NCBI RefSeq assembly: GCF_055900595.2
Contig: NZ_CM148325.1
Reading direction: 5' to 3' (one strand)
Length of the DNA stretch: 64,000 nt
Position 1 is the first letter of the stretch, and every line of letters starts with the position of its first letter. The translations under genes were made by a program, and so were the position numbers. Under the pieces are notes generated by a model. That model did not search any database and had not been told where the DNA came from. It worked only from the letters and a program-made list of their open reading frames with translations. Positions 3,159 to 18,037 of this stretch are shown here, in pieces.

Positions 3159-3902
3159 ATGACAGAGACAGAATCAGCGATTCTGGCGCACGCCCGGCGA
3201 TGTGCGCCAGCGGAGTCGTGCGGCTTCGTGGTGAGAGCGCCGGAGGGGGAAAGATATTTCCCCTGCGTGAATATCTCCGGTGAGCCGGAGGCGTATTTCC
3301 GGATGTCGCCGGAGGACTGGCTGCAGGCAGAGATGCAGGGTGAGATTGTGGCACTGGTCCACAGTCACCCCGGTGGTCTGCCCTGGCTGAGTGAGGCCGA
3401 CCGGCGGCTGCAGGTGCAGAGTGATTTGCCGTGGTGGCTGGTTTGCCGGGGAGCGATTCACAAGTTCCGCTGTGTGCCACATCTTTCCGGGCGGCGCTTT
3501 GAGCACGGGGTGACGGACTGTTACACGCTGTTCCGGGATGCTTACCATCTGGCGGGGATTGAGATGCCGGATTTTCATCGCGAGGATGACTGGTGGCGTA
3601 ACGGTCAGAATCTCTATCTGGATAATCTGGAGGCCACAGGGCTGTATCAGGTGCCGTTGTCAGCGGCGCAGCCGGGCGATGTGCTGCTGTGCTGTTTTGG
3701 TTCATCGGTGCCGAATCATGCCGCCATTTACTGTGGTGACAGCGAGCTGCTGCACCATATTCCTGAACAACTGAGCAAACGAGAGAGGTACACCGACAAA
3801 TGGCAGCGACGCACACACTCCCTCTGGCGTCACCGGGCATGGCACGCATCTGCCTTTACGGGGATTTACAACGATTTGGCCGCCGCATCGACCTTCGAGT
3901 GA
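3159..3902 (+). CDS. K: phage tail tip assembly protein K (MPN/JAMM plus NlpC/P60 domains)
   Basis: HSHPGG JAMM motif and DCYTLF catalytic Cys region; lambda gpK-like. Lambda K is annotated from the internal Met (here 3303); 3' end overlaps I as in lambda. Confidence 0.85.
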   Translation: MTETESAILAHARRCAPAESCGFVVRAPEGERYFPCVNISGEPEAYFRMSPEDWLQAEMQGEIVALVHSHPGGLPWLSEADRRLQVQSDLPWWLVCRGAIHKFRCVPHLSGRRFEHGVTDCYTLFRDAYHLAGIEMPDFHREDDWWRNGQNLYLDNLEATGLYQVPLSAAQPGDVLLCCFGSSVPNHAAIYCGDSELLHHIPEQLSKRERYTDKWQRRTHSLWRHRAWHASAFTGIYNDLAAASTFE

Positions 3903-4447
3903 AAACGGGGTCCGAAGCCATCCGGGCGCTGGCCATGCAGATCCCGGCGTTTCGTCAGAAACTGAGCGACGGCTGGTACCAGGTACGCATTGCCGGGCGT
4001 GATGCCGGTGAAACCGAATTGTCTGCCCGTCTTAATGAGCCGCTGGCAAATGGTGCCGTGATCCACATCGTGCCGCGTCTGGCGGGAGCTAAAAGTGGCG
4101 GTGTGTTTCAGGTGGTGCTGGGGGCGGCGCTGATTGCGGTGGCATGGTGGAACCCTGTGGGCTGGCTGGGAGCCGCGGCTGTATCGGGTATGTATGCGGC
4201 AGGGGCCAGTATGATCCTGGGCGGAGTGGCGCAGATGCTGGCACCGAAAGCCAGGACGCCCACGGCAGCAAGTACAGATAACGGCAAACAGAACACCTAT
4301 TTCTCCTCACTGGATAACATGGTTGCCCAGGGCAATGTTCTGCCCGTTCTGTACGGTGAAATGCGCGTGGGGTCGCGGGTGGTCTCTCAGGAGATCAGCA
4401 CGGCAGACGAAGGGGATGGTGGTCAGGTTGTGGTGATTGGTCGCTGA
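3800..4447 (+). CDS. I: phage tail assembly protein I
   Basis: MAATHTLPLASPGMARICLYGDLQRFGRRIDLRV... near-identical to the lambda gpI N- and C-termini. Confidence 0.9.
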   Translation: MAATHTLPLASPGMARICLYGDLQRFGRRIDLRVKTGSEAIRALAMQIPAFRQKLSDGWYQVRIAGRDAGETELSARLNEPLANGAVIHIVPRLAGAKSGGVFQVVLGAALIAVAWWNPVGWLGAAAVSGMYAAGASMILGGVAQMLAPKARTPTAASTDNGKQNTYFSSLDNMVAQGNVLPVLYGEMRVGSRVVSQEISTADEGDGGQVVVIGR

Positions 4448-4507
4448 TGAAAAACGTTTTATGTGAAACCGCCTCCGGGCGGTTTTGTCGTTTATGGAGC
4501 GTTAGGA

Positions 4508-7500
4508 ATGGGTAAAGGCAGCAGTAAGGGGCATACTCCGCGCGAAGCGAAGGACAACCTGAAGTCCACGCAGTTGCTGAGTGTGATCGATGCCATCAGC
4601 GAAGGGCCGGTTGAAGGTCCGGTAGATGGATTAAAAAGCGTGCTGCTGAACAGTACGCCAGTGCTGGACATTGAGGGGAATACCAACATCTCCGGCGTCA
4701 CGGTGGTGTTCCGGGCCGGTGAGCAGGAGCAAACACCGCCGGAGGGATTTGAATCCTCCGGCTCCGAGACGGTGCTGGGTACGGAAGTGAAATACGACAC
4801 GCCGATCACCCGGACCATCACGTCGGCAAACATTGACCGACTGCGTTTTACCTTCGGCGTGCAGGCACTGGTGGAAACCACCTCAAAGGGGGACAGGAAT
4901 CCGTCGGAAGTCCGCCTGCTGGTTCAGATACAACGTAACGGTGGCTGGGTGACGGAAAAAGACATCACCATTAAAGGCAAAACCACCTCACAGTATCTGG
5001 CCTCGGTGGTGGTGGGTAACCTGCCGCCGCGCCCGTTCAATATCCGGATGCGCAGGATGACGCCGGACAGCACCACAGACCAACTGCAGAACAAAACGCT
5101 CTGGTCGTCATACACCGAAATCATCGATGTGAAACAGTGCTACCCGAACACGGCACTGGTTGGCGTGCAGGTGGACTCGGAGCAGTTCGGCAGCCAGCAG
5201 GTGAGCCGTAATTATCATCTTCGCGGGCGCATTCTGCAGGTGCCGTCGAACTATAACCCGCAGACGCGGCAATACAGCGGTATCTGGGACGGAACGTTAA
5301 AACCGGCATACAGCAACAACATGGCCTGGTGTCTGTGGGATATGCTGACCCACCCGCGCTACGGCATGGGGAAACGTCTTGGTGCGGCAGATGTGGATAA
5401 ATGGGCGCTGTATGTCATCGGCCAGAATTGCGACCAGTCGGTGCCGGACGGCTTTGGCGGTACGGAGCCGCGCATCACCTGTAACGCTTACCTGACCACA
5501 CAACGTAAGGCGTGGGATGTGCTCAGTGATTTCTGCTCGGCGATGCGCTGTATGCCGGTATGGAGCGGGCAGACGCTGACGTTCGTGCAGGACCGACCGT
5601 CGGATAAGGTGTGGACCTATAACCGCAGTAATGTGGTGATGCCGGATGATGGCGCGCCGTTCCGCTACAGCTTCAGCGCCCTGAAAGACCGCCATAATGC
5701 CGTTGAGGTGAACTGGATTGACCCGGATAACGGCTGGGAGACGGCAACAGAGCTTGTGGAGGACTCGCAGGCCATTGCCCGTTACGGTCGTAACGTCACG
5801 AAGATGGATGCCTTTGGCTGTACCAGCCGGGGGCAGGCACACCGCGCCGGGCTGTGGCTGATTAAAACGGAGCTGCTGGAAACGCAGACGGTGGACTTCA
5901 GCGTGGGTGCCGAAGGGCTTCGCCATGTGCCGGGCGATGTTATTGAAATCTGCGATGATGACTATGCCGGTATCAGCATCGGTGGTCGCGTGCTGGCGGT
6001 GAACAGCCAGACCCGGACGCTGACGCTCGACCGTGAAATCACGCTGCCATCCTCCGGCACCACGCTGATAAGCCTGGTTGACGGTGAGGGTAATCCGGTC
6101 AGCGTGGAGGTCCAGTCCGTCACCGACGGCGTGAAGGTGAAAGTGAGCCGTGTTCCTGACGGCGTTGCTGAATACAGCGTGTGGGGGCTGAAGTTGCCGA
6201 CGTTGCGCCAGCGCCTGTTCCGCTGCGTGAGTATCCGTGAGAACGACGACGGCACGTATGCCATCACTGCCGTGCAGCATGTACCGGAGAAAGAGGCCAT
6301 CGTGGATAACGGGGCGCACTTTGACGGTGACCAGAGCGGCACGGTGAATGGTGTCACGCCGCCAGCAGTGCAGCACCTGACCGCAGAAGTCACTGCAGAC
6401 AGCGGGGAATATCAGGTGCTGGCGCGATGGGACACACCGAAGGTGGTGAAGGGCGTGAGCTTCCTGCTTCGCCTGACCGTGGCAGCGGATGACGGCAGTG
6501 AGCGGCTGGTCAGCACGGCCCGGACGACGGAAACCACTTACCGCTTCACACAACTGGCTCTGGGGAACTACAGGCTGACAGTCCGGGCAGTAAATGCGTG
6601 GGGGCAGCAGGGCGATCCGGCGTCGGTATCGTTCCGGATTGCCGCACCGGCAGCGCCGTCGCGGATTGAGCTGACGCCGGGCTATTTTCAGATAACCGCC
6701 ACGCCGCATCTTGCGGTTTATGATCCGACGGTACAGTTTGAGGTCTGGTTCTCGGAAAAACGGATTGCTGATATCAGGCAGGTTGAAACCAGCGCGCGTT
6801 ATCTTGGTACGGCGCTGTACTGGATAGCCGCCAGTATCAATATCAAACCGGGTCGTGATTATTACTTTTATATCCGCAGTGTGAACACCGTCGGCAAATC
6901 GGCATTCGTGGAGGCTGTTGGTCGGGCGAGCGATGATGCGGAAGGTTACCTGGATTTTTTCAAAGGCCAGATAACCGAATCCCATCTCGGCAAGGAGCTG
7001 CTGGAAAAAGTCGAGCTGACGGAGGATAACGCCAGCAGACTGGAGGAGTTTTCGAAAGAGTGGAAGGACGCCAGTGATAAGTGGAATGCCATGTGGGGCG
7101 TCAAAATTGAGCAGACCAAAGACGGCAAACATTATGTCGCGGGTATTGGCCTCAGTATGGAGGATACAGAGGAAGGCAAACTGAGTCAGTTTCTGGTTGC
7201 CGCCAATCGTATCGCGTTTATTGACCCGGCAAACGGGAATGAAACGCCGATGTTTGTGGCGCAGGGCAACCAGATATTCATGAACGACGTGTTCCTGAAA
7301 CGCCTGACGGCCCCCACCATTACCAGCGGCGGTAATCCTCCGGCATTTTCCCTGACACCGGATGGGCGGCTGACGGCGAAAAATGCCGATATCAGCGGTA
7401 ACGTGAATGCGAACTCCGGGACGCTCAACAACGTCACGATTAACGAGAACTGTCGGGTTCTGGGAAAACTGTCCGCGAACCAGATTGAAGGCGATCTCGT

Positions 7501-7903
7501 TAAAACAGTGGGCAAAGCTTTCCCCCGGGACTCCCGTGCACCGGAGCGGTGGCCATCAGGGACCATTACCGTCAGGGTTTATGACGATCAGCCGTTTGAC
7601 CGGCAGATTGTTATTCCGGCGGTGGCATTCAGCGGCGCTAAACATGAGAGAGAGCATACTGATATTTACTCCTCATGCCGTCTGATAGTGCGGAAAAACG
7701 GTGCTGAAATTTATAACCGTACCGCGCTGGATAATACGCTGATTTACAGTGGCGTTATTGATATGCCTGCCGGTCACGGTCACATGACGCTGGAGTTTTC
7801 GGTGTCAGCATGGCTGGTAAATGACTGGTATCCCACAGCAAGTATCAGCGATTTGCTGGTTGTGGTGATGAAGAAAGCCACCGCAGGCATCAGTATCAGC
7901 TGA
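4508..7903 (+). CDS. J: phage tail tip host-specificity protein J
   Basis: 1131 aa starting [24 protein letters not shown], collinear with lambda gpJ throughout; the ORF track start at 4463 is an upstream extension. Confidence 0.95.
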
Positions 7904-7921
7904 ATTTTATAACCCATATAC

Positions 7922-7946
7922 GGGCGCCAGAAATGGCGCCTTTTTT
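7922..7946 (+). terminator. rho-independent terminator after J
   Basis: GGCGCC-agaaat-GGCGCC stem followed by TTTTTT. Confidence 0.7.
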
Positions 7947-7970
7947 ATTGCAGAAAAGCGAGAGGTAATT

Positions 7971-8570
7971 ATGCGTAAAGTTTGTGCAGCCATTTTGTCC
8001 GCAGCCATCTGTCTGTCCGTATCCGGTGCGCCTGCATGGGCATCTGAACATCAGTCCACGCTGAGCGCGGGGTATCTTCATGCCTCGACGAACGTTCCCG
8101 GCAGCGATGATCTTAACGGGATTAACATGAAATACCGTTATGAGTTTACGGACACACTGGGGCTGGTGACGTCATTCAGCTATGCAGGAGACAAGAATCG
8201 CCAGCTTACCCGTTACAGCAATACCCGCTGGCATGAAGATTCCGTGCGTAACCGCTGGTTCAGCGTGATGGTGGGGCCGTCTGTGCGCGTGAATGAATGG
8301 TTCAGCGCGTATGCGATGGCGGGTATGGCTTACAGCCGTGTGTCGACTTTTTCCGGGGATTATCTCCGCGTAACTGACAATAAGGGGAAAACGCACGATG
8401 TGCTGACCGGAAGTGATGACGGTCGCCACAGCAACACGTCTCTGGCGTGGGGAGCTGGCGTGCAGTTTAACCCGACCGAATCCGTGGCCATTGATATTGC
8501 TTATGAAGGCTCCGGCAGTGGTGACTGGCGCACTGACGGTTTCATCGTGGGTGTCGGTTATAAATTCTGA
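7971..8570 (+). CDS. lom: outer membrane protein Lom (Ail/Lom family, prophage-encoded)
   Basis: 199 aa with signal peptide [24 protein letters not shown] and beta-barrel pattern ending ...GVGYKF, as in lambda Lom. Confidence 0.9.
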
Positions 8571-8597
8571 TTAGCCAGGTAACACAGTGTTATGACA

Positions 8598-8622
8598 GCC
8601 CGCCGGTTCAGGCGGGCTTTTT
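8598..8622 (+). terminator. rho-independent terminator after lom
   Basis: GCCCGCC-ggttca-GGCGGGC stem followed by TTTTT. Confidence 0.75.
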
Positions 8623-9330
8623 GTGCACAGAAAACCCCCAGCTAGGCTGGGGGTTCCGGAAAGCTTTCAGCTTTGAGCCAGTTATTAAAACCCCTTTTGA
8701 TTTGTTAAAACACCTTGCGGTCTGGCAACTGCAAGTGTCAAACAAGAAATCAAAAGGGGGTCCCAATGGGGGACGAAAAGAGCTTAGCGCACACCCGCTG
8801 GAACTGTAAATATCACATAGTTTTTGCGCCGAAATACCGAAGACTGGCGTTTTACGGAGAGAAGCGTAGGGCGATAGGCAGTATTTTGAGAAAGCTGTGT
8901 GAGTGGAAAAGCGTACGGATTCTGGAAGCAGAGTGCTGCGCAGATCATATCCATATGCTTGTGGAAATCCCACCCAAAATGAGCGTATCCGGCTTTATGG
9001 GATATCTGAAAGGGAAAAGCAGTCTGATGCTTTACGAGCAGTTTGGGGATTTGAAATTCAAATACAGAAACAGGGAGTTCTGGTGCCGAGGGTACTATGT
9101 CGATACGGTGGGTAAGAACACGGCGAAGATACAGGACTACATAAAGCACCAGCTTGAAGAGGATAAAATGGGGGAGCAGTTATCGATTCCATATCCGGGC
9201 AGCCCGTTTACGGGCCGTAAGTAACGAAGTTGAATGCAAATGTCAGATCGTATGCGCCTGTTAGGGCGCGGCTGGTAACAGAGCCTTACAGGCGCATTTG
9301 AAAAACCTCCGGCTATGCCGGAGGATATTT
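8623..9330 (+). mobile_element. IS200 insertion sequence (IS200/IS605 family); ends approximate
   Basis: Contains a tnpA matching IS200 Y1 transposase; left-end hairpin CCCCCAGC-tagg-CTGGGGG upstream of tnpA; ~0.7 kb, the expected IS200 size. Confidence 0.8.
8766..9224 (+). CDS. tnpA: IS200 transposase TnpA (HUH/Y1)
   Basis: 152 aa MGDEKSLAHTRWNCKYHIVFAPKYRR...HIHMLVEIPPK, the HUH motif and IS200 TnpA signature. Confidence 0.95.
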   Translation: MGDEKSLAHTRWNCKYHIVFAPKYRRLAFYGEKRRAIGSILRKLCEWKSVRILEAECCADHIHMLVEIPPKMSVSGFMGYLKGKSSLMLYEQFGDLKFKYRNREFWCRGYYVDTVGKNTAKIQDYIKHQLEEDKMGEQLSIPYPGSPFTGRK

Positions 9331-9345: not shown

Positions 9346-11751
9346 ATGGCAGCAGTAAAAATCTCAGGTGTGCTGAAAGATGGTGCGGGAAAACCAATAC
9401 AGAACTGCACTATTCAACTGAAGGCAAAGCGTAACAGCACCACGGTACTGGTGAACACGGTGGCTTCTGAAAATCCGGATGAAGCCGGACGTTACAGCAT
9501 GGATGTTGAGTATGGCCAGTACAGCGTCACCCTGCTGGTTGAAGGTTTTCCGCCTTCACATGCCGGGACCATTACCGTCTATGAAGGCTCCAGACCAGGT
9601 ACGCTGAATGATTTTCTCGGTGCCATGACGGAAGATGATGTCATGCCGGAGGCATTGCGTCGTTTTGAGGCAATGGTGGAAGAAGTGGCACGCAACGCCG
9701 AAGCCGCCTCTCAGAGCGCAGCGGCGGCAAAGAAATCCGAAACTGCAGCGGCATCATCAAAGAACGCGGCGAAAACCTCAGAAACGAATGCAGCTAATAG
9801 TGCACAGGCGGCAGCGACCTCAAAGACTGCATCGGCAAACTCCGCGACAGCAGCCAAAAAATCAGAAACCAACGCGAAAAATAGCGAGACAGCCGCAAAG
9901 ACGAGCGAAACCAACGCAAAGTCCAGCCAGACGGCAGCGAAAACCAGCGAAACGAATGCCAAAGCCAGTGAAACTGCGGCAAAAAACAGCCAGGTTGCAG
10001 CAGCCCAAAGCGAGAGCGCGGCAGCCGGTTCTGCGACTTCAGCAGCTGGATCAGCAACTGCTGCGGCTAACAGCCAGAAAGCTGCGAAGACGAGTGAAAC
10101 TAACGCAAAGTCCAGCCAGACGGCAGCGAAGACCAGCGAAACGAATGCCAAAACCAGCGAAACTGCGGCGAAAAACAGTCAGGATGCAGCAGCCCAAAGC
10201 GAGAGTGCTGCAGCTGGTTCTGCAAGCGCGGCGGCTGCTTCTGCCACTGCATCAGCTAACAGTCAAAAAGCAGCAAAAACCAGTGAAACCAACGCAAAGG
10301 CGAGCGAGACTGCGGCGGCGAACTCGGCGCAAGCATCGGCAGCAAGCCAGACAGCAGCTAAAGCAAGTGAAGACGCAGCCAGAGAGTATGCAAGCCAGGC
10401 AGCGGAGCCGTATAAACAAGTTTTGCAGCCGTTGCCCGATGTGTGGATACCGTTTAATGATTCACTGGATATGATTACGGGCTTTTCGCCATCATATAAA
10501 AAAATTGTTATTGGCGACGATGAAATAACAATGCCTGGCGACAAGATTGTAAAGTTTAAACGCGCATCGAAAGCAACTTACATTAATAAATCTGGTGTGC
10601 TGACAGAGGCTGCCATTGACGAGCCACGATTTGAACGTGATGGCCTGCTTATTGAGGGGCAAAGAACTAACCTGCTAATCAATTCAACAAATCCGACTAA
10701 ATGGAACAAGTCGTCAAATATGATCTTAAGTGCATCAGGTGTAGATGATTTCGGATTCCAGTACGCAAAATTTACATTAAAACCAGAAATGGTAGGGCAA
10801 ATTTCAGCGATTAACATAGTAACCGTTTCCGGCAGTAAAGGTTTTGATGTAACAGGCGGAGAAAAGTATGTAACCATATCATGCAGGGTGCAAAGTGGCA
10901 CTCCAAATTTAAGATGCCGATTACGATTTGAAAACTATGATGGTTCTACCTACACATTCTTAGGTGACGCTTACTTAAATACGACAGATTTATCTATTGA
11001 TAAGACGGGTGGTGCCGCTAATCGCATTACTGCAAGGGCTGTTAAAGATGAAGCAAGCAAATGGATCTTTTTTGAGGCGACAATTAAGGCACTTGATACA
11101 GAAAATATGATAGGTGGAATGGTTCAGTATGCCCCGGCAAAAGGAGTGGGCACTGGCGCGGATGATTATATTTATATTGCGACCCCTCAAGTTGAAGGTG
11201 GGGCGTGCGCTTCATCGTTTATTATAACAGGCGCATCCCCTGTAACACGCGCCAGCGATATTGTGACGGTCCCCATTTCTCTAAATTGGTGCAATCCCGC
11301 TATTAGTTCATTAGCAGAAGTTAATACCAATTGGGATGAATCGCCAAACAAAGAAGGTAGCGCACGTATTCTTAATATTTCCACTACGGGAGATACAACT
11401 GAAATTGCAGATGAAAGTTATATGTATTTGGGGTATACATCTTTGGGAGCACGCGCAATCATTACAAATGGTAAAGGCACTAAAATAGAATATAAAAGCG
11501 TTATAGAACGACCAGAGAGAAAAAGCATTATCGGCTTTAGATTCACAGAAAGTCGAGAATTGTGTGTTGTGGTTAACGGTAATATTGGTGCTAAGGTAGT
11601 TTCTCCTTATAAAAAACACAAATATACAGGAGGCTTCATTAATATTGGTGGTCAATCATCATCCGGCAACCGTCACCTATTTGGACACGTTCGAAATCTG
11701 CGTATTTGGCACAAGGCATTGACTGATGCTCAGATGGGGGAGTCAATCTAA
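9346..11751 (+). CDS. stf: side tail fiber protein (lambda Stf-like N-terminus, Ala/Ser/Thr-rich repeat shaft, divergent AT-rich C-terminal domain)
   Basis: N-terminus MAAVKISGVLKDGAGKPIQNCTIQLKA... matches lambda Stf; shaft has repeated KTSETNAK units; C-terminus ends GHVRNLRIWHKALTDAQM, resembling a LamG/concanavalin-like fold. Confidence 0.85.
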   Translation: MAAVKISGVLKDGAGKPIQNCTIQLKAKRNSTTVLVNTVASENPDEAGRYSMDVEYGQYSVTLLVEGFPPSHAGTITVYEGSRPGTLNDFLGAMTEDDVMPEALRRFEAMVEEVARNAEAASQSAAAAKKSETAAASSKNAAKTSETNAANSAQAAATSKTASANSATAAKKSETNAKNSETAAKTSETNAKSSQTAAKTSETNAKASETAAKNSQVAAAQSESAAAGSATSAAGSATAAANSQKAAKTSETNAKSSQTAAKTSETNAKTSETAAKNSQDAAAQSESAAAGSASAAAASATASANSQKAAKTSETNAKASETAAANSAQASAASQTAAKASEDAAREYASQAAEPYKQVLQPLPDVWIPFNDSLDMITGFSPSYKKIVIGDDEITMPGDKIVKFKRASKATYINKSGVLTEAAIDEPRFERDGLLIEGQRTNLLINSTNPTKWNKSSNMILSASGVDDFGFQYAKFTLKPEMVGQISAINIVTVSGSKGFDVTGGEKYVTISCRVQSGTPNLRCRLRFENYDGSTYTFLGDAYLNTTDLSIDKTGGAANRITARAVKDEASKWIFFEATIKALDTENMIGGMVQYAPAKGVGTGADDYIYIATPQVEGGACASSFIITGASPVTRASDIVTVPISLNWCNPAISSLAEVNTNWDESPNKEGSARILNISTTGDTTEIADESYMYLGYTSLGARAIITNGKGTKIEYKSVIERPERKSIIGFRFTESRELCVVVNGNIGAKVVSPYKKHKYTGGFINIGGQSSSGNRHLFGHVRNLRIWHKALTDAQMGESI
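9860..10330 (+). repeat. tandem imperfect coding repeats (~186-bp units) in the tail fiber shaft
   Basis: Protein repeats SQKAAKTSETNAKSSQTAAKTSETNAK(A/T)SETAAKNSQ...AAAQSESAAAGSA occur at least twice, nearly identical. Confidence 0.7.
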
Positions 11752-12032
11752 TGAAAGATTTAACACTCAAATTTGCCGACAGGGCCGACTTTTCGGCTTT
11801 TATGGGAAGTATTGGCTATTATAATGACGAGTCGATGCAGGATGATATTCTGATTGATGTGATAGGTAACGTGTACAAAGAAACCGGAGAGCTGACTGAA
11901 GATGGCGAACCGGTATGTGTTAAGGAAGATGGATATTTTGTAAACGTGCGCATCATTAAGGATACGCAAATATCGTCATTATTCGATGAATACGCGGTTG
12001 CTGTTGAGCATCAACTTCGTGGCTGGATGTGA
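11751..12032 (+). CDS. hypothetical protein (93 aa) immediately downstream of tail fiber; possible fiber assembly/accessory protein
   Basis: ATG overlaps the stf stop (TAATG); acidic 93-aa product; same low-GC block as the fiber C-terminus. Confidence 0.5.
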   Translation: MKDLTLKFADRADFSAFMGSIGYYNDESMQDDILIDVIGNVYKETGELTEDGEPVCVKEDGYFVNVRIIKDTQISSLFDEYAVAVEHQLRGWM

Positions 12033-12041
12033 GGTAGAGAA

Positions 12042-12746
12042 ATGGCTACATCAACAGTAATTCCGGGAGACATCACCACGCTGAAGGGAGATGTTAGTAA
12101 AGCAAAGGAAGATATTTCCTCTATTAACGGAAAAGTATCAACGCTTCAGACTGATATGGCCAGTGCAAAGCAGGATATCAGCACCAGATACACAAAAACT
12201 GAAGTTGATAATAAGCTGAAAAACAAAGTGGAAGTGAACGATCTGGAAAGTGGTCGTTATGGCGGAGATTTTTACCCGCTGACTGGCCGTGAAGCGTTTT
12301 ATTTATGGGGATTGGGCACAACTACAGCGGCGGCAAATCTTTATCTTAATCCTGACCCTGCAATTTCGTCTGTGCTGCGGTCAACATCGTCTATCCGCTA
12401 TAAACATTCAGTAGAGACGATAGATTCAGAGCACGCCGATCTCATTTTCAGGATGCGCCCTGTGTGGTACAGGTCGCAATGCGAAAATGACAGGCGTGAC
12501 TGGGGATTCTATGGATTGATTGCCGAGGAAGTTGGAGAAATTGCCCCTCAGTTTGTTCACTGGCGACCAGCCAACGAAGATGATGCACCGGAAACCATTT
12601 CCAGCAATGGCCTTGTTGCCGAAGGTGTAATGTACGAACGTCTGGTTGTTCCACTGATTCACCATATCCAGAAGCTGACTGAAAGAGTTGATGAACTTGA
12701 GTCAGAATTAAAGTTGTTATCCGTTTCCCGAAGCGATATCGGATAA
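12042..12746 (+). CDS. coiled-coil protein with C-terminal intramolecular-chaperone (peptidase S74-like) domain; tail-fiber-related
   Basis: N-terminal heptad-like coiled coil; C-terminal SSIRYKHSVETID...LIFRMRPVWYR...GFYGLIAEEV resembles the self-cleaving chaperone domain of endosialidase-type fibers. Confidence 0.6.
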   Translation: MATSTVIPGDITTLKGDVSKAKEDISSINGKVSTLQTDMASAKQDISTRYTKTEVDNKLKNKVEVNDLESGRYGGDFYPLTGREAFYLWGLGTTTAAANLYLNPDPAISSVLRSTSSIRYKHSVETIDSEHADLIFRMRPVWYRSQCENDRRDWGFYGLIAEEVGEIAPQFVHWRPANEDDAPETISSNGLVAEGVMYERLVVPLIHHIQKLTERVDELESELKLLSVSRSDIG

Positions 12747-12756
12747 AGGAGGCGTA

Positions 12757-13050
12757 ATGGATATAACACCTTTCCTTCATGCACTTTGTGCTGTGGCTGC
12801 GCAGGTACTGGTTGGTCTTTTTACCGGAAACTGGGCTTACGGGGCGATAGCTGGTTGTACGTTCTTCATTGCGCGTGAACATACCCAGGCAGAATATCGC
12901 TGGATTGAAATGTTCGGGCATGGCAAGCGTATGAATATGCCGTGGTGGGGCGGTTTTGATCCGCGTGCGTGGGATGTGGCAAGCCTGATGGATTTTGCTG
13001 TGCCGGTGGTGGCGTGTCTGCTGGTCTGGCTGTTGGTTAATCGTGGGTGA
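12757..13050 (+). CDS. small membrane protein (97 aa, two predicted TM segments), function unknown
   Basis: Hydrophobic N- and C-terminal segments; RBS AAGGAGG upstream; tightly packed after the preceding ORF. Confidence 0.5.
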   Translation: MDITPFLHALCAVAAQVLVGLFTGNWAYGAIAGCTFFIAREHTQAEYRWIEMFGHGKRMNMPWWGGFDPRAWDVASLMDFAVPVVACLLVWLLVNRG

Positions 13051-13060
13051 AAAAAGGTGA

Positions 13061-13180
13061 GCTGTATATGCAACGGAGGAAGAAACCTCGTTGCGGGAAG
13101 CCTTGAAGAAGTATCGGGTGTTGCTGAACCGTGTTGATACGTCAACTGCACAGGATATTGAATGGCCAGCACTGCCGTAG
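13061..13180 (+). pseudogene. tfa: tail fiber assembly protein (Tfa) 3' remnant
   Basis: Translates to [36 protein letters not shown], the conserved Tfa C-terminus (as in K-12 TfaQ/TfaR), with no upstream coding part. Confidence 0.75.
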
Positions 13181-13277
13181 GGTAAAACATATAAATTCTA
13201 TAATTAGATGTATCTTTCCATTTACGGCAAGGAAGGGGGCTTGGAAGACGTAAGGCATCTCACACCGAGATTATTTT

Positions 13278-13868
13278 TTATATGTCAGGTGTCTGAAGTT
13301 TTGCTTTGGCTCTTAAAATGGTTTGCCGCGAGGTTTTGAATTCCCGGGCAATGGCACTTATACTTACACCTGACTTAATCCGTTCGAATACCACCTGTTT
13401 CTGTTCTTCATTTAACACAGGTGGTCGACCAAAACGTTTCCCTGCGCCCCGGGCTCTTACTATCCCGGAATGAGTGCGTTCAAGTAAAAGGTCTCGTTCA
13501 AATTCAGCGACTGCTGAAATTACTTGCATCATCATTTTTCCTGTTGGACTGGTCAGGTCAATGCCCCCCAATGCTAAGCAATGCACTCTGATACCTGTTT
13601 CGGTCAGTTGTTCCACTGTTTTCCTGATATCCATTGCATTACAACCAAGGCGATCCAGTTTTGTCACAATCAATTGATCACCACATTTCAGGCGAGCAAG
13701 CAACCGGTTAAAACCAGGACGCTCACTGGTTGCTGCTGAGCCGCTAATGTGTTCTTCGATTATTTGCTGAGGTTTGATTTTAAAACCTGCACTTTCGATT
13801 TCCCGGCGTTGATTTTCGGTGGTCTGATCCAGCGTTGATATCCGACAGTAAGCAAAAATTCGAGACAT
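13278..13868 (-). CDS. pin: serine recombinase / DNA invertase (PinQ/PinR-like)
   Basis: 196 aa [29 protein letters not shown]... resolvase/invertase fold with catalytic Ser and C-terminal HTH; position next to tfa and ydfK matches K-12 pinQ. Confidence 0.9.
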
Positions 13869-14184
13869 AGTGAGACTCTATACGAAATTGGTGTTCATAT
13901 CATAATGCATCTCAGAAAATAATTTTGATTATTTTTGTGCATGTTTGTATGTACACGTTCGAAAATAAACGAATGCGTATGCAACCCCGTAATTTTGGTG
14001 AGACCCAAAATCGATTTTGTGAAAAATGGCTTTAACTCGGTTTGTTTTTCGAGTTCCGGGCGGACTCAAGGAAGAAGAATAGTGTTGCGTGTTATTTTAA
14101 CCAGATTTCAAGTTGTTTGGTCGTGGAAAAGTGGAGCAAAATGTTGTTAAAGTGGAAAAATGATAAAAAAGTAAGTTTATTATA

Positions 14185-14418
14185 TTACATTTTACCATTT
14201 AAATTTTGGTTGTCTTTAAGAACTGATATCGCTGTTTGTAATAATTCTTTGTTATCCAGCCATGATTTTTTCTTTATGTTTCCTTCAATGTAATCAAGCA
14301 ATGTTCTGGTATTGATAGGTCTTCCCTGTTTTGCTACTTCCACTACAGCATCCCCTAGGATAATTCTGACTTCAGGAAGCTGCGCAGGGAACCACTTTAG
14401 GGTGTCTTTTGATTTCAT
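14185..14418 (-). CDS. ydfK: YdfK/YnaE family prophage protein (cold-shock-induced, DUF1737-like)
   Basis: MKSKDTLKWFPAQLPEVRIILGDAVVEVAKQGRPINTRTLLDYIEGNIKKKSWLDNKELL... matches K-12 YdfK; RBS AAGGA upstream of this start, so the longer ORF-track start at 14451 is rejected. Confidence 0.8.
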   Translation of the reverse strand: MKSKDTLKWFPAQLPEVRIILGDAVVEVAKQGRPINTRTLLDYIEGNIKKKSWLDNKELLQTAISVLKDNQNLNGKM

Positions 14419-15203
14419 GAATATATTCCTTAAAATATTATTGATTTTCATTGCGATATTGTATGTCTGATTCAGGATATGTTGACTTATACATCGGTTT
14501 TGTCTGGGTTATTGGATATGCCAATCCCTAATTTTATTAGAGCATGACTAAAAATGCTGAATATGATAAGGAGCGAAGTGATTATCAGTATGCTGTTCAT
14601 ATAGCCTCGAATTATTAATGTGTTATATATGATATAGTTGACAATTTTTATCCTGGGTGTTCTTAAAGTTCGTAGATAAACATTGTCGTTTCAGGTATAC
14701 AGGAATGCTAACAGATGGCGGCAAAAATCAGGCGGTTTATGGCGCAAGCTGAAGTGGCAACTGCAAACTATCTTATGCAGAGACTCTACACGGATTGGGT
14801 TTAAAAGTATACATAGATAACAGTTTTTATCTGAAGAAGAAAAATATCAAGGTGATATAGCCTATATGCCTTTGATGCGGAGGAATGAATGTGATGGGAG
14901 TGATGTATCTGAATAGTTGAAAAACCGCAGACACGCCTTATGCAAGAACGTGCTGCGGTTGGCTGGTAAATTTTTCGATAGTGCGAGTATTGAATGATTT
15001 CCAGCCGTTATTGATTTTACGCGTAACTCCATGAAAAAACTACTTATCTGTTGAGGAGTTTTTTTGGGGCATATATGGGACAGAAATAGGCCCCAGATAG
15101 ACACTGAGATCGAACTTAGGATGCTTTTTAAAAAATGCAACTATCTGAAAAAACCTAGAAAACGCCAAGGAAACCACAGGATGGGAAAAAACACCTGTGA
15201 ATC

Positions 15204-16487
15204 ATGGATTTCCAGTTATATTCGCTCGGCGCAGCGTTAGTGTTTCATGAAATATTTTTTCCTGAATCATCAACGGCAATGGCGTTAATTCTGGCAATGG
15301 GAACCTACGGTGCAGGTTATGTGGCGCGTATTGTCGGAGCATTTATTTTCGGCAAAATGGGCGACAGAATCGGGCGTAAAAAAGTGCTCTTTATTACCAT
15401 CACTATGATGGGGATCTGTACCACCTTAATTGGTGTGCTGCCGACCTATGCACAAATTGGTGTGTTTGCGCCAATTTTGCTGGTGACGCTGCGTATTATT
15501 CAGGGGCTGGGGGCAGGCGCGGAAATTTCCGGTGCCGGTACGATGCTGGCGGAATATGCGCCAAAAGGTAAGCGCGGAATTATCTCCTCATTTGTTGCTA
15601 TGGGGACTAACTGCGGAACCTTGAGCGCAACGGCAATCTGGGCCTTTATGTTCTTCATTCTCAGTAAAGAGGAACTGTTGGCGTGGGGATGGCGTATACC
15701 GTTCCTGGCGAGCGTTGTCGTGATGGTCTTTGCTATCTGGTTGCGTATGAATCTGAAAGAAAGCCCGGTCTTTGAGAAGGTTAACGACAGCAACCAACCG
15801 ACAGCAAAACCTGCACCTGCTGGTAGCATGTTCCAGAGCAAATCCTTCTGGCTGGCAACAGGGCTGCGTTTTGGTCAGGCTGGTAACTCAGGTTTAATTC
15901 AGACTTTCCTTGCAGGCTATTTAGTGCAGACGTTATTGTTTAACAAAGCAATTCCAACAGATGCATTGATGATCAGTTCGATTCTCGGCTTTATGACCAT
16001 TCCGTTCCTTGGTTGGTTATCCGATAAAATTGGTCGCCGGATCCCGTATATTATTATGAATACCTCTGCGATTGTGCTGGCGTGGCCAATGCTTTCTATC
16101 ATCGTAGATAAAAGCTATGCCCCGAGCACCATTATGGTTGCACTGATTGTGATTCATAACTGTGCGGTGCTGGGATTATTTGCTCTGGAAAACATTACCA
16201 TGGCAGAAATGTTCGGCTGTAAAAACCGCTTTACCCGGATGGCCATTTCTAAAGAAATTGGTGGTCTTATCGCTTCCGGTTTTGGTCCTATCCTGGCGGG
16301 TATTTTCTGCACCATGACGGAATCCTGGTATCCGATCGCCATTATGATCATGGCATATTCAGTGATTGGTTTAATCTCTGCGCTGAAAATGCCAGAAGTG
16401 AAAGACCGTGATTTAAGTGCACTGGAAGATGCCGCGGAAGATCAACCGCGTGTTGTAACAGCTGCGCAACCTTCAAGAAGTCTGTAA
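15204..16487 (+). CDS. ydfJ: MFS metabolite:H+ symporter YdfJ, N-terminally truncated at the prophage junction
   Basis: 427-aa ORF matching K-12 YdfJ (MDFQLYSLGAALVFHEIFF...); begins within TM2 of an MHS-family transporter, so the 5' part is missing. Confidence 0.85.
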   Translation: MDFQLYSLGAALVFHEIFFPESSTAMALILAMGTYGAGYVARIVGAFIFGKMGDRIGRKKVLFITITMMGICTTLIGVLPTYAQIGVFAPILLVTLRIIQGLGAGAEISGAGTMLAEYAPKGKRGIISSFVAMGTNCGTLSATAIWAFMFFILSKEELLAWGWRIPFLASVVVMVFAIWLRMNLKESPVFEKVNDSNQPTAKPAPAGSMFQSKSFWLATGLRFGQAGNSGLIQTFLAGYLVQTLLFNKAIPTDALMISSILGFMTIPFLGWLSDKIGRRIPYIIMNTSAIVLAWPMLSIIVDKSYAPSTIMVALIVIHNCAVLGLFALENITMAEMFGCKNRFTRMAISKEIGGLIASGFGPILAGIFCTMTESWYPIAIMIMAYSVIGLISALKMPEVKDRDLSALEDAAEDQPRVVTAAQPSRSL

Positions 16488-16576: not shown

Positions 16577-18037
16577 ATGGGAAATAATTTGTTATCAGCA
16601 AAAGCGACGCTCCCTGTTTATGATCGTAATAACCTGGCCCCAAGAATTGTTCATTTAGGCTTTGGTGCATTTCACCGTGCGCATCAGGGCGTGTATGCCG
16701 ATATTCTTGCTACGGAACATTTCAGTGACTGGGGATATTATGAGGTCAATTTAATCGGCGGCGAACAGCAAATTGCCGATTTACAACAGCAAGATAATCT
16801 TTATACCGTTGCGGAAATGTCGGCCGATGCGTGGACGGCTCGCGTCGTTGGCGTCGTTAAAAAAGCCTTGCACATACAAATAGATGGCTTAGAAACCGTG
16901 CTGGCTGCGATGTGTGAACCGCAAATCGCGATTGTCTCTCTGACAATCACCGAAAAAGGGTATTTCCACTCTCCGGCGACCGGACAGTTAATGCTCGATC
17001 ACCCGATGGTCGTTGCCGACGTGCAAAATCCCCACCAGCCGAAAACTGCAACAGGGGTGATTGTTGAGGCGCTGGCTCGCCGTAAAGCGGCAGGACTTCC
17101 CGCATTTACCGTCATGTCATGTGACAACATGCCAGAAAACGGTCATGTTATGCGTGACGTTGTCACTTCCTACGCGCAAGCTGTTGATGTAAAACTGGCA
17201 CAATGGATCGAAGAAAACGTGACTTTCCCATCAACAATGGTGGACCGTATTGTGCCCGCAGTGACGGAGGATACGCTGGCGAAAATCGAACAACTTACCG
17301 GTGTGCGCGATCCTGCTGGCGTTGCCTGTGAACCTTTCCGCCAGTGGGTAATAGAAGATAACTTTGTTGCCGGACGTCCGGAATGGGAAAAAGCGGGAGC
17401 CGAACTGGTTAGTGATGTGCTGCCTTATGAAGAGATGAAGTTGCGCATGCTCAACGGCAGTCATTCATTCCTGGCGTATCTGGGGTATCTTGCCGGATAT
17501 CAGCACATTAATGACTGCATGGAAGATGAACATTATCATCATGCAGCGTATGCCTTGATGTTGCAGGAACAAGCGCCCACGCTGAAAGTGCAGGGCGTTG
17601 ATTTGCAAGATTACGCTAACCGATTAATTGAACGCTATAGCAACCCGGCGCTACGTCATCGAACCTGGCAGATTGCGATGGATGGCAGCCAGAAATTGCC
17701 ACAGCGGATGTTGGATTCTGTTCGCTGGCATCTGGCGCATGACAGCAAGTTCGATCTGCTGGCGCTGGGCGTCGCGGGTTGGATGCGTTATGTCGGTGGT
17801 GTTGATGAACAGGGAAATCAGATAGAAATCAGTGACCCACTGTTACCTGTTATTCAGAAGGCAGTACAAAGTAGTGCTGAAGGGAAAGCGCGCGTCCAGT
17901 CATTGCTGGCGATTAAGGCGATCTTTGGTGATGATTTACCGGGCAATAGCTTGTTTACTGCAAAAGTGACGGAAGCGTACTTGTCTTTATTAGCGCATGG
18001 CGCAAAAGCGACCGTGGCGAAATATTCCGTGAAGTAA
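16577..18037 (+). CDS. ydfI: mannitol dehydrogenase family oxidoreductase YdfI
   Basis: 486 aa; N-terminal [10 protein letters not shown] Rossmann motif of the mannitol dehydrogenase family; K-12 synteny. Confidence 0.9.

Follow-up and report, generated by a model that had tools for sequence, protein, structure and literature searches.

The DNA invertase gene pinQ/pinR of a Qin-type prophage is probably the resolvase gene of a decayed Tn3-family element

Small mobile elements derived from Tn3, in which only a resolvase gene and its res region lie between Tn3-family inverted repeats, have been described as non-autonomous TIME-RES elements (Szuplewska et al. 2014, PMC4133298). For the Tn3 resolvase it has been shown that the exchange of R71 for alanine or lysine abolishes recombination and slows cleavage about 1000-fold; catalytic-residue mutants, those of R71 included, keep the binding of site I, and the R71 mutants are described as not inert (PMC2794168). 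PinQ from E. coli, which was previously uncharacterised and is 38% identical to the e14 invertase PinE, is reported to act on a segment of another prophage and not on the adjoining DNA, and a BLAST comparison of Qin and Rac revealed no inversions (Kirigo et al., NAR 2025, PMC12529663). The present study concerns a gene of this kind in a stretch of 64,000 nucleotides (assembly GCF_055900595.2, contig NZ_CM148325.1; in the following "the window") of an E. coli chromosome. A lambdoid prophage of the Qin type has its insertion site in ydfJ there, and its right end is contained in the window. The recombinase gene codes for a protein identical to PinR from E. coli K-12, is named pinQ by RefSeq in identical E. 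coli loci and is labelled Pin or DNA invertase in the databases. Our analysis makes it very probable that pinQ/pinR is the tnpR gene of an 834-bp decayed Tn3-family element without transposase, which once inserted in a phage.

The recombinase gene lies inside an element (positions 13235-14068) with the order inverted repeat, res, tnpR, inverted repeat. Over its entire length, this element can be aligned with an intact one of the same organization on the E. coli plasmid pE371_1, and the homology ends at the outer edge of both repeats. Both termini in the window are of the GGGG...TAAG type with 38 bp, and both are decayed. The right terminal inverted repeat (IR-R) directly follows the stop codon of tnpR and is approximately 73% identical to the intact 38-bp repeat of pE371_1 (GGGGTCCGCTTGGAAAACGGAAAATATCCCACGCTAAG), with a deletion of 3 bp, and the left one (IR-L) is the sole match with at most 13 mismatches to this repeat in the window and is located where the alignment predicts it. 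Intact (0-4 mismatches) or cut by IS5075, the same 38-bp repeat was found in loci from Shewanella, Photorhabdus, Budvicia, Klebsiella and Enterobacter, and IS5075 and IS4321 are inserted near plasmid-borne homologs. These two insertion sequences target terminal repeats of the Tn21 type. A transposase gene is absent from the element, since only about 50-60 bp lie between IR-L and res. The first-pass annotation had assigned the recombinase to positions 13181-13935, a span which does contain the gene but cuts through the element. When the pE371_1 element, together with 50 bp of flanking DNA, was compared with plasmids in order to find independent insertions with duplications, the flanks dominated the matches, and 95 records hold at least 80% of the query.

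The element is bracketed by the pentanucleotide AGGAA (TTCCT on the other strand), and this is the case for every copy examined, namely those from K-12 Qin, K-12 Rac and phage HannyBb as well as two diverged copies (L017 and L025). A duplication common to all these copies points to one ancestral insertion event. According to this interpretation, an ancestral phage of the lambdoid group would have received the element in its b region by a single transposition, which created the 5-bp duplication. The insertion point would be located between the end of tfa and the ydfK module, and the element would have been inherited together with this module ever since.

The relationship of the protein was assessed in a pairwise identity matrix. 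The open reading frame (ORF) is intact, codes for a small serine recombinase of 196 amino acids and matches the Pfam domains Resolvase (PF00239, E 2.5e-36) and HTH_7 (PF02796, E 3.8e-11). PinE and Gin share 78% identity and members of the Din family are in general about 60-80% identical, whereas the protein from the window is only 38% identical to PinE, 36% to Gin and 31% to the gamma-delta resolvase, which places it outside close Din kinship. In contrast, it shares 76-84% identity with TnpR resolvases that adjoin Tn3-family transposases. Two such homologs, from Klebsiella pKpN01-SIL (79%) and Serratia pSERAS01 (76%), are encoded approximately 120-160 bp from a Tn3-family transposase gene, the transposase from Klebsiella reaching 1204.8 bits on NF033527 (cutoff 500). 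Thousands of relatives with 77-85% identity are present in the protein database, from Enterobacterales and Shewanella and many of them plasmid-borne, and PLSDB holds 250 records at 80-90% and 1529 at 60-80% identity. The best matches of solved structure are Gin (105 bits) and the gamma-delta resolvase (82 bits), neither of them close. At the DNA level, no homology exists to gin, cin or pin; in Din invertase genes, a Fis-dependent recombinational enhancer with degenerate Fis sites usually lies in the 5' part. A possible relationship to CinH-RS2, a resolvase of 189 amino acids with a 119-bp site from Acinetobacter pKLH2, was also considered. The motif of the recognition helix, (S/T)RQT(I)LR, is the same in the window protein and in the transposon-borne relatives. 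Because of this large difference in identity to PinE/Gin and to the transposase-linked TnpRs, and because of the Tn3-type repeats and the duplication around the gene, PinQ/PinR is by the evidence of its sequence not an invertase of the Gin/Hin/Cin/Pin type, and the name "Pin" appears to be a misnomer. The premise of the first-pass annotation, that a Pin/Gin/Cin invertase is to be expected beside an invertible fiber segment, is therefore not supported for this protein.

The DNA upstream of the gene gives a similar picture. A series of half-sites with the sequence TGT[AC]CGAAA, all no more than about 125 bp from the ATG, is common to eight relatives of different origin (Erwinia, Shewanella, Photorhabdus, a metagenome-assembled genome of Oxalobacteraceae, Klebsiella, Enterobacter, Serratia and a plasmid from E. 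coli), and the region upstream of the recombinase in the window aligns column by column with these eight intact res regions (MAFFT). A half-site matrix was derived from 46 family half-sites, in which the dinucleotide CG is invariant (46/46). In the majority of the intact loci tested, a scan for paired half-sites with this matrix recovered one site of 28 bp and another of 34 bp, and this geometry is that of sites I and II of Tn3/gamma-delta. The same scan gave no site in the 64-kb window, where shuffled sequence gives 0-2. The two half-sites of site I score 3.5 and 4.9 bits in the window versus 17.0 and 17.6 bits in pE371_1, and those of site II about 0 versus 12.7-16.1 bits. Overall, five of the six half-sites range from -3.5 to 4.9 bits in the window, compared with 12.7-17.6 bits for five of six in pE371_1, and only the promoter-proximal half-site CTATACGAAATT in site III is near consensus (12.5 bits). 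In a scan for sigma-70 promoters, the conserved TATGAT did not stand out as a strong one. The decay is graded across the variants, from the intact plasmid copy via two intermediate copies (L025, then L024) to the window. Since the non-coding DNA has diverged from pE371_1 (approximately 30-35%) nearly as far as the synonymous positions of the gene (raw value, dS about 0.6), both terminal repeats, like five of the six half-sites, seem to have drifted at roughly the neutral rate, and the element in the window can be regarded as a fossil. For the suggestion that the recombinase might act on cryptic sites, the paired half-site scan gives no support in cis.

An imperfect 26-bp palindrome, ACACGTTCGAAAATAAACGAATGCGT, is present at positions 13948-13973 and was considered as a crossover site. 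It overlaps the decayed site I, its center is 2-3 bp off the dyad of the family and its arms are not family half-sites, and it was treated as a coincidence. A different arrangement was observed in Erwinia oleae (L012, approximately positions 1780-2070), where two paralogous recombinase genes diverge across a single 28-bp site I and a 34-bp site II is located on either side of it, resulting in a mirror-symmetric res.

In the protein itself, the equivalents of the Tn3 residues Y6, R8, S10 and R68 are kept along with the other core residues (the codon of the catalytic Ser11 is at positions 13836-13838), and D36 is replaced by glutamate as across the whole clade. The position of the catalytic arginine R71 of Tn3 is taken by Cys76 within the sequence LDRLGCN (codon at positions 13641-13643), so the full Tn3 catalytic set (Y6, R8, S10, D36, R68, R71) is not present. 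An arginine occupies this position in 112 of 120 family representatives, and cysteine is confined to the PinQ/PinR-type clusters. The dN/dS values of the gene are 0.14-0.36, including comparisons among phage-context copies only, which shows that the coding sequence is under purifying selection.

By analogy with the Tn3 and gamma-delta resolvases, the binding sites of the ancestral protein would have been three subsites in front of tnpR, the 28-bp site I, the 34-bp site II and a site III overlapping the promoter. Recombination at site I of two res copies in direct repeat would have served to resolve cointegrates, and the protein would have repressed its own promoter. We infer that the present protein is no longer able to act in cis. 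Because its ORF is intact and evolves under purifying selection despite the decayed sites and Cys76, it presumably persists for a role that is independent of its own res, of which sequence-specific DNA binding or a weak trans activity on foreign sites are the likeliest.

The gene is widespread. It was detected in 2750 of 5426 complete E. coli genomes (at least 80% coverage), mostly with at least 99% identity; a pinE-like invertase gene with an adjacent site, which was counted separately from pinQ/R, occurs in 1404 genomes at the same coverage. Copies with 99-100% identity are carried by 11 phage records representing ten phages, among them mEp460_ev081, 2H10, Tritos, HannyBb, Turner and Kati, and the gene is present in viable lambdoid phages. 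In HannyBb and Turner it is located between the fiber genes and the integrase/attachment region. A relative with 61% identity is encoded by L004 (Erwinia phage LS-2018a, positions 7880-8606) right after the stop codon of the terminase gene and before a two-gene module and the portal gene. It has its own res-like array with the half-site variant TGTACTAAA, and its upstream side shows no evident terminal repeat.

Two further copies illustrate the variation of the locus. The copy from E. coli GCA_910593615.1 (L025, positions 3799-4637) is found in a phage context and has phage-type terminal repeats, and it has kept the catalytic arginine. The gene of this copy, together with sites II and III, matches the pE371_1 type at 95% identity, which suggests gene conversion or recombination between a prophage and a plasmid copy. 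In the Rac-type prophage of E. coli 2017.04.02CC (L008), the recombinase and all tail-fiber genes are deleted and the left terminal repeat is kept. Window position 13878, where the homology restarts, lies 10 bp before the start codon and borders the remnant of site III.

The search for an invertible segment confirmed what the first-pass annotation had noted from the letters. The Din crossover consensus TTNTCNNAAACCNNGGTTTNNGANAA was scanned over the whole 64-kb window with up to three mismatches and gave no match, and the e14 repeat taken from the literature, CCTTCTCCCAAACCAA, gave none under the same threshold, so that no gix-, hix- or pix-type site exists near pin, within stf or elsewhere in the window at this stringency. 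As a positive control, TTNTCNNAAACCNNGGTTTNNGANAA recovered both pix sites of K-12 e14 with one mismatch each. Between positions 7500 and 15500, the inverted repeats are short matches at chance level (84 pairs in 8 kb), and pairs with one arm close to the recombinase gene, for example 11868-11884/13943-13959 (17 nt, 88%), are no better than these. According to both the ORF list and the RefSeq annotation, every ORF from stf through the tfa remnant is on the plus strand, again as first described. Two opposed sets of fiber-tip and tfa genes are present neither in the window nor in HannyBb and Turner, the two phage loci examined. Inversion among the locus variants was also considered and rejected, because the partial loci carry an IS1 or IS66 insertion and the copy without pin represents a deletion, and none is inverted.

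That PinQ has no adjacent invertible segment was already known (PMC12529663). The present results suggest why: there is no such segment to find, because the gene would never have been a tail-fiber invertase. Its place beside the tail-fiber genes is an accident of transposon landing. The earlier proposal that the recombinase may be orphaned holds insofar as its cognate cis sites have decayed and no partner site is present in the window, with the qualification that, going by the sequence comparisons, it would be orphaned as a transposon resolvase and not as a fiber invertase. In the searchable literature, we came across neither the transposon origin of PinQ/PinR nor its catalytic cysteine, and this origin appears to be unreported.

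Several points weigh against the interpretation as a decayed transposon with its resolvase gene. The insertion is deduced from the repeats and the duplication without direct sight of the empty site, and joined flanks with a single AGGAA were not found in the 5426 E. coli genomes and the phage collection. Moreover, the repeats in the window are only about 68-73% identical to intact ones, and the intact copy on pE371_1 is without a flanking duplication. A full transposon could also have inserted and then lost tnpA in place, an alternative which is tempered by the internal junction common to the plasmid copy and the phage copies. For the subsites, the functions follow from analogy only. The purifying selection to which the ORF is subject is at odds with a pure fossil. 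Finally, when PinQ is produced, the e14 P segment is reported to be inverted at about 88% instead of about 30% (PMC12529663), which implies recombinase activity despite Cys76.

This last result is central to the model of Kirigo et al. (2025), according to which PinQ/PinR directly inverts the e14 P segment at pix in trans, leading to StfE2 and a block of phage T2, and this function maintains the gene. The effect of PinQ production is gone in strains with a deletion of stfP, stfE or e14, and the deletion of pinQ makes the cells sensitive to T2 (PMC12529663). The purifying selection on the ORF, the remaining activity described for Tn3 R71 mutants (PMC2794168) and the core TCC.AAACC that is common to the half-sites of the family and of Din (TGTCCGAAACC versus TATCCAAAACC) are also compatible with this model. 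However, the pix half-sites reach only 1.0-2.2 bits on the family matrix and are without the invariant CG, Din sites comprise 26 bp compared to the 28-bp crossover site of the family, and the arginine whose exchange abolishes recombination by the Tn3 resolvase is a cysteine in PinQ/PinR. In addition, a pinE mutant that still possesses pinQ and pinR has the P segment locked in one orientation (PMC12529663), pinQ/R is found in more genomes than the separately counted pinE-like invertase with its site, and there is no e14 in the window. The sequence features thus make a direct catalysis by PinQ at the e14 P segment doubtful, and we consider the model in this form as unlikely. In the same publication, the trematode Clonorchis sinensis is listed among the carriers of PinR/Q (more than 90% identity), which is most likely due to bacterial contamination of the assembly.

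Equally unlikely, although compatible with several observations, is that the protein was exapted as a DNA-binding protein that has lost efficient catalysis and serves as a repressor or as a binder of the res of incoming related Tn3-family transposons or plasmids. The dN/dS values in spite of the decayed cis sites and the lost arginine would fit such a role, as would the recognition helix shared with the transposon-borne relatives, the persisting site I binding of Tn3 catalytic-residue mutants (PMC2794168) and the abundance on enterobacterial plasmids of relatives with an intact res (see the PLSDB counts above). The reported inversion phenotype, however, is not explained by DNA binding alone. 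A broader version, which we put forward as a tentative idea of similarly low probability, is that of a domesticated transposon resolvase that has lost its own sites and the catalytic arginine and is kept by lambdoid phages and E. coli for an action in trans. It might be a DNA-binding regulator, interfere with related transposons and plasmids, or be an attenuated or partner-dependent modulator of Din-type inversion such as that of the e14 P segment. If this is true, a cross-talk between two families of serine recombinases underlies the phage-defense phenotype.

A still active resolvase that uses the upstream res-like region on multimers of phages or prophages or on tandem lysogens is very improbable. 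All phage-borne copies retain the res-homologous region, and one half-site together with the promoter-proximal part is near consensus; five of six half-sites are nevertheless degenerate, no paired site passes the scan, the catalytic arginine is a cysteine, and the non-coding divergence is what neutral decay would give. The assumption of a Din-family fiber invertase whose invertible segment was lost when the fiber-tip cassette was replaced has the least probability of all, since the proximity to stf/tfa, the tfa 3' remnant as a trace of a replaced cassette, the better structural match to Gin and the database names are opposed by the distant relationship to PinE and Gin, the lack of any Din crossover site in spite of a working control, the Tn3-type repeats and 5-bp duplication around the gene, its transcription towards tfa (in the case of pinE, a pix site directly precedes the start of the gene), relatives that adjoin Tn3 transposases or non-fiber genes such as those for terminase and portal, and the Din family membership tests, which contradict it.

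The surrounding side tail-fiber locus (positions 9346-13180) is a mosaic of the N-terminal domain of stf, long repeats rich in Ala, Ser and Thr (approximately 9700-10400) and a distinct C-terminal part. The latter is followed by an ORF with an S74 chaperone domain, two small ORFs and the remnant of a displaced tfa, and homology to tfaQ from K-12 begins abruptly at window position 13069-13070. The gap between lom and stf (8600-9300) is occupied by an IS200-type element (Y1 transposase, PF01797, E 7.9e-37). Strain SJC33, whose locus is otherwise identical, is without this element, and its stf starts about 65 bp past lom.

Table 1. Positions of the genes around the recombinase and of the parts of the 834-bp element (window coordinates)
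Feature	Position	Strand	Remark
J	4463-7903	+	
lom	7971-8570	+	
IS200-type transposase	8766-9224	+	
stf	9346-11751	+	
orf93	11751-12032	+	
Separate fiber-domain gene with Peptidase_S74 chaperone domain	12042-12746	+	
orf97	12757-13050	+	
tfa 3' remnant, 120 bp, outside the element	13061-13180	+	RefSeq: partial tail fiber assembly protein in an identical locus
Target-site duplication AGGAA, IR-R side	13230-13234	+	recurs at 14069-14073
IR-R, decayed Tn3-family terminal inverted repeat, tnpR side	13235-13272	-	aligned to the pE371_1 repeat
Recombinase (pinQ/pinR-type)	13278-13868	-	
res site III remnant	13879-13898	-	aligns with ATGTACACCCATTTCGTACA of intact res regions
Conserved -10-like TATGAT	13899-13904	-	aligns with TATAAT of intact res regions
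Decayed res site II (34 bp in intact relatives)	13910-13942	-	MAFFT with 8 intact res regions
Decayed res site I, presumed crossover site (28 bp when intact)	13956-13981	-	aligns with TGTCCGAAATCG-AC-CGGTTTCGGACA
IR-L, decayed Tn3-family terminal inverted repeat	14030-14068	-	26/38 match to the family repeat
Target-site duplication AGGAA, second copy	14069-14073	+	conserved in the copies examined
ydfK	14185-14451	-	
Truncated ydfJ	15204-16487	+	
ydfI	16577-18037	+	

The correct classification of PinQ and PinR is of interest, since about half of the complete E. coli genomes, including K-12, encode such a protein under the label of a DNA invertase, and since the phage-defense model published in 2025 rests on PinQ as an active invertase. 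A transposon origin would explain the long-standing puzzle of the missing segment and would correct the annotation. Moreover, the predicted recognition half-site TGT[AC]CGAAA and Cys76 make the claim of inversion in trans testable. The locus also documents an element of the TIME-RES type that has become fixed inside a phage module.

In comparison to the described systems, there are similarities and differences in several aspects. With the Din invertases Gin (Mu), Cin (P1), Hin (Salmonella) and PinE (e14), the window protein shares the superfamily, the minor-groove motif GRPP, the TCC.AAACC core of the half-sites, the neighborhood of tail-fiber genes and the name. It differs from them in the low sequence identity (36-38%), in gene orientation and flanks, and in its transposon-linked relatives, and the window has neither a pair of 26-bp crossover sites nor opposed fiber/tfa sets. 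The similarity to the Tn3 and gamma-delta resolvases comprises the fold of a small serine recombinase with HTH_7, a res ahead of tnpR in which site I has 28 bp and site II 34 bp, and the conserved equivalents of Y6, R8, S10, R68 and the remaining core residues. In this case, the differences are the identity of only 31% to gamma-delta, the half-site TGT[AC]CGAAA, the degenerate subsites in the window and the cysteine at the R71 position.

The TIME-RES elements have the same order of inverted repeat, res, tnpR and inverted repeat, no transposase and a 5-bp target duplication, and represent a portable module for site-specific recombination. They are of a different lineage, with a 309-amino-acid TnpR of the Tn5563 type, and are known from Pseudomonas, whereas the element in the window codes for a TnpR of 196 amino acids between Tn21-like repeats, and this copy is decayed and fixed in a phage module. 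The closest counterparts are found in K-12, and the comparison with the pinQ and pinR loci that had been recommended for this recombinase turned out to be informative. Compared to Qin and Rac from K-12, the prophage in the window is more complete and has a different fiber-tip cassette, and only the tfa 3' remnant adjoins the element. PinQ and PinR themselves, however, are encoded by the same gene, within the same 834-bp element and between the same AGGAA duplication as in the window.

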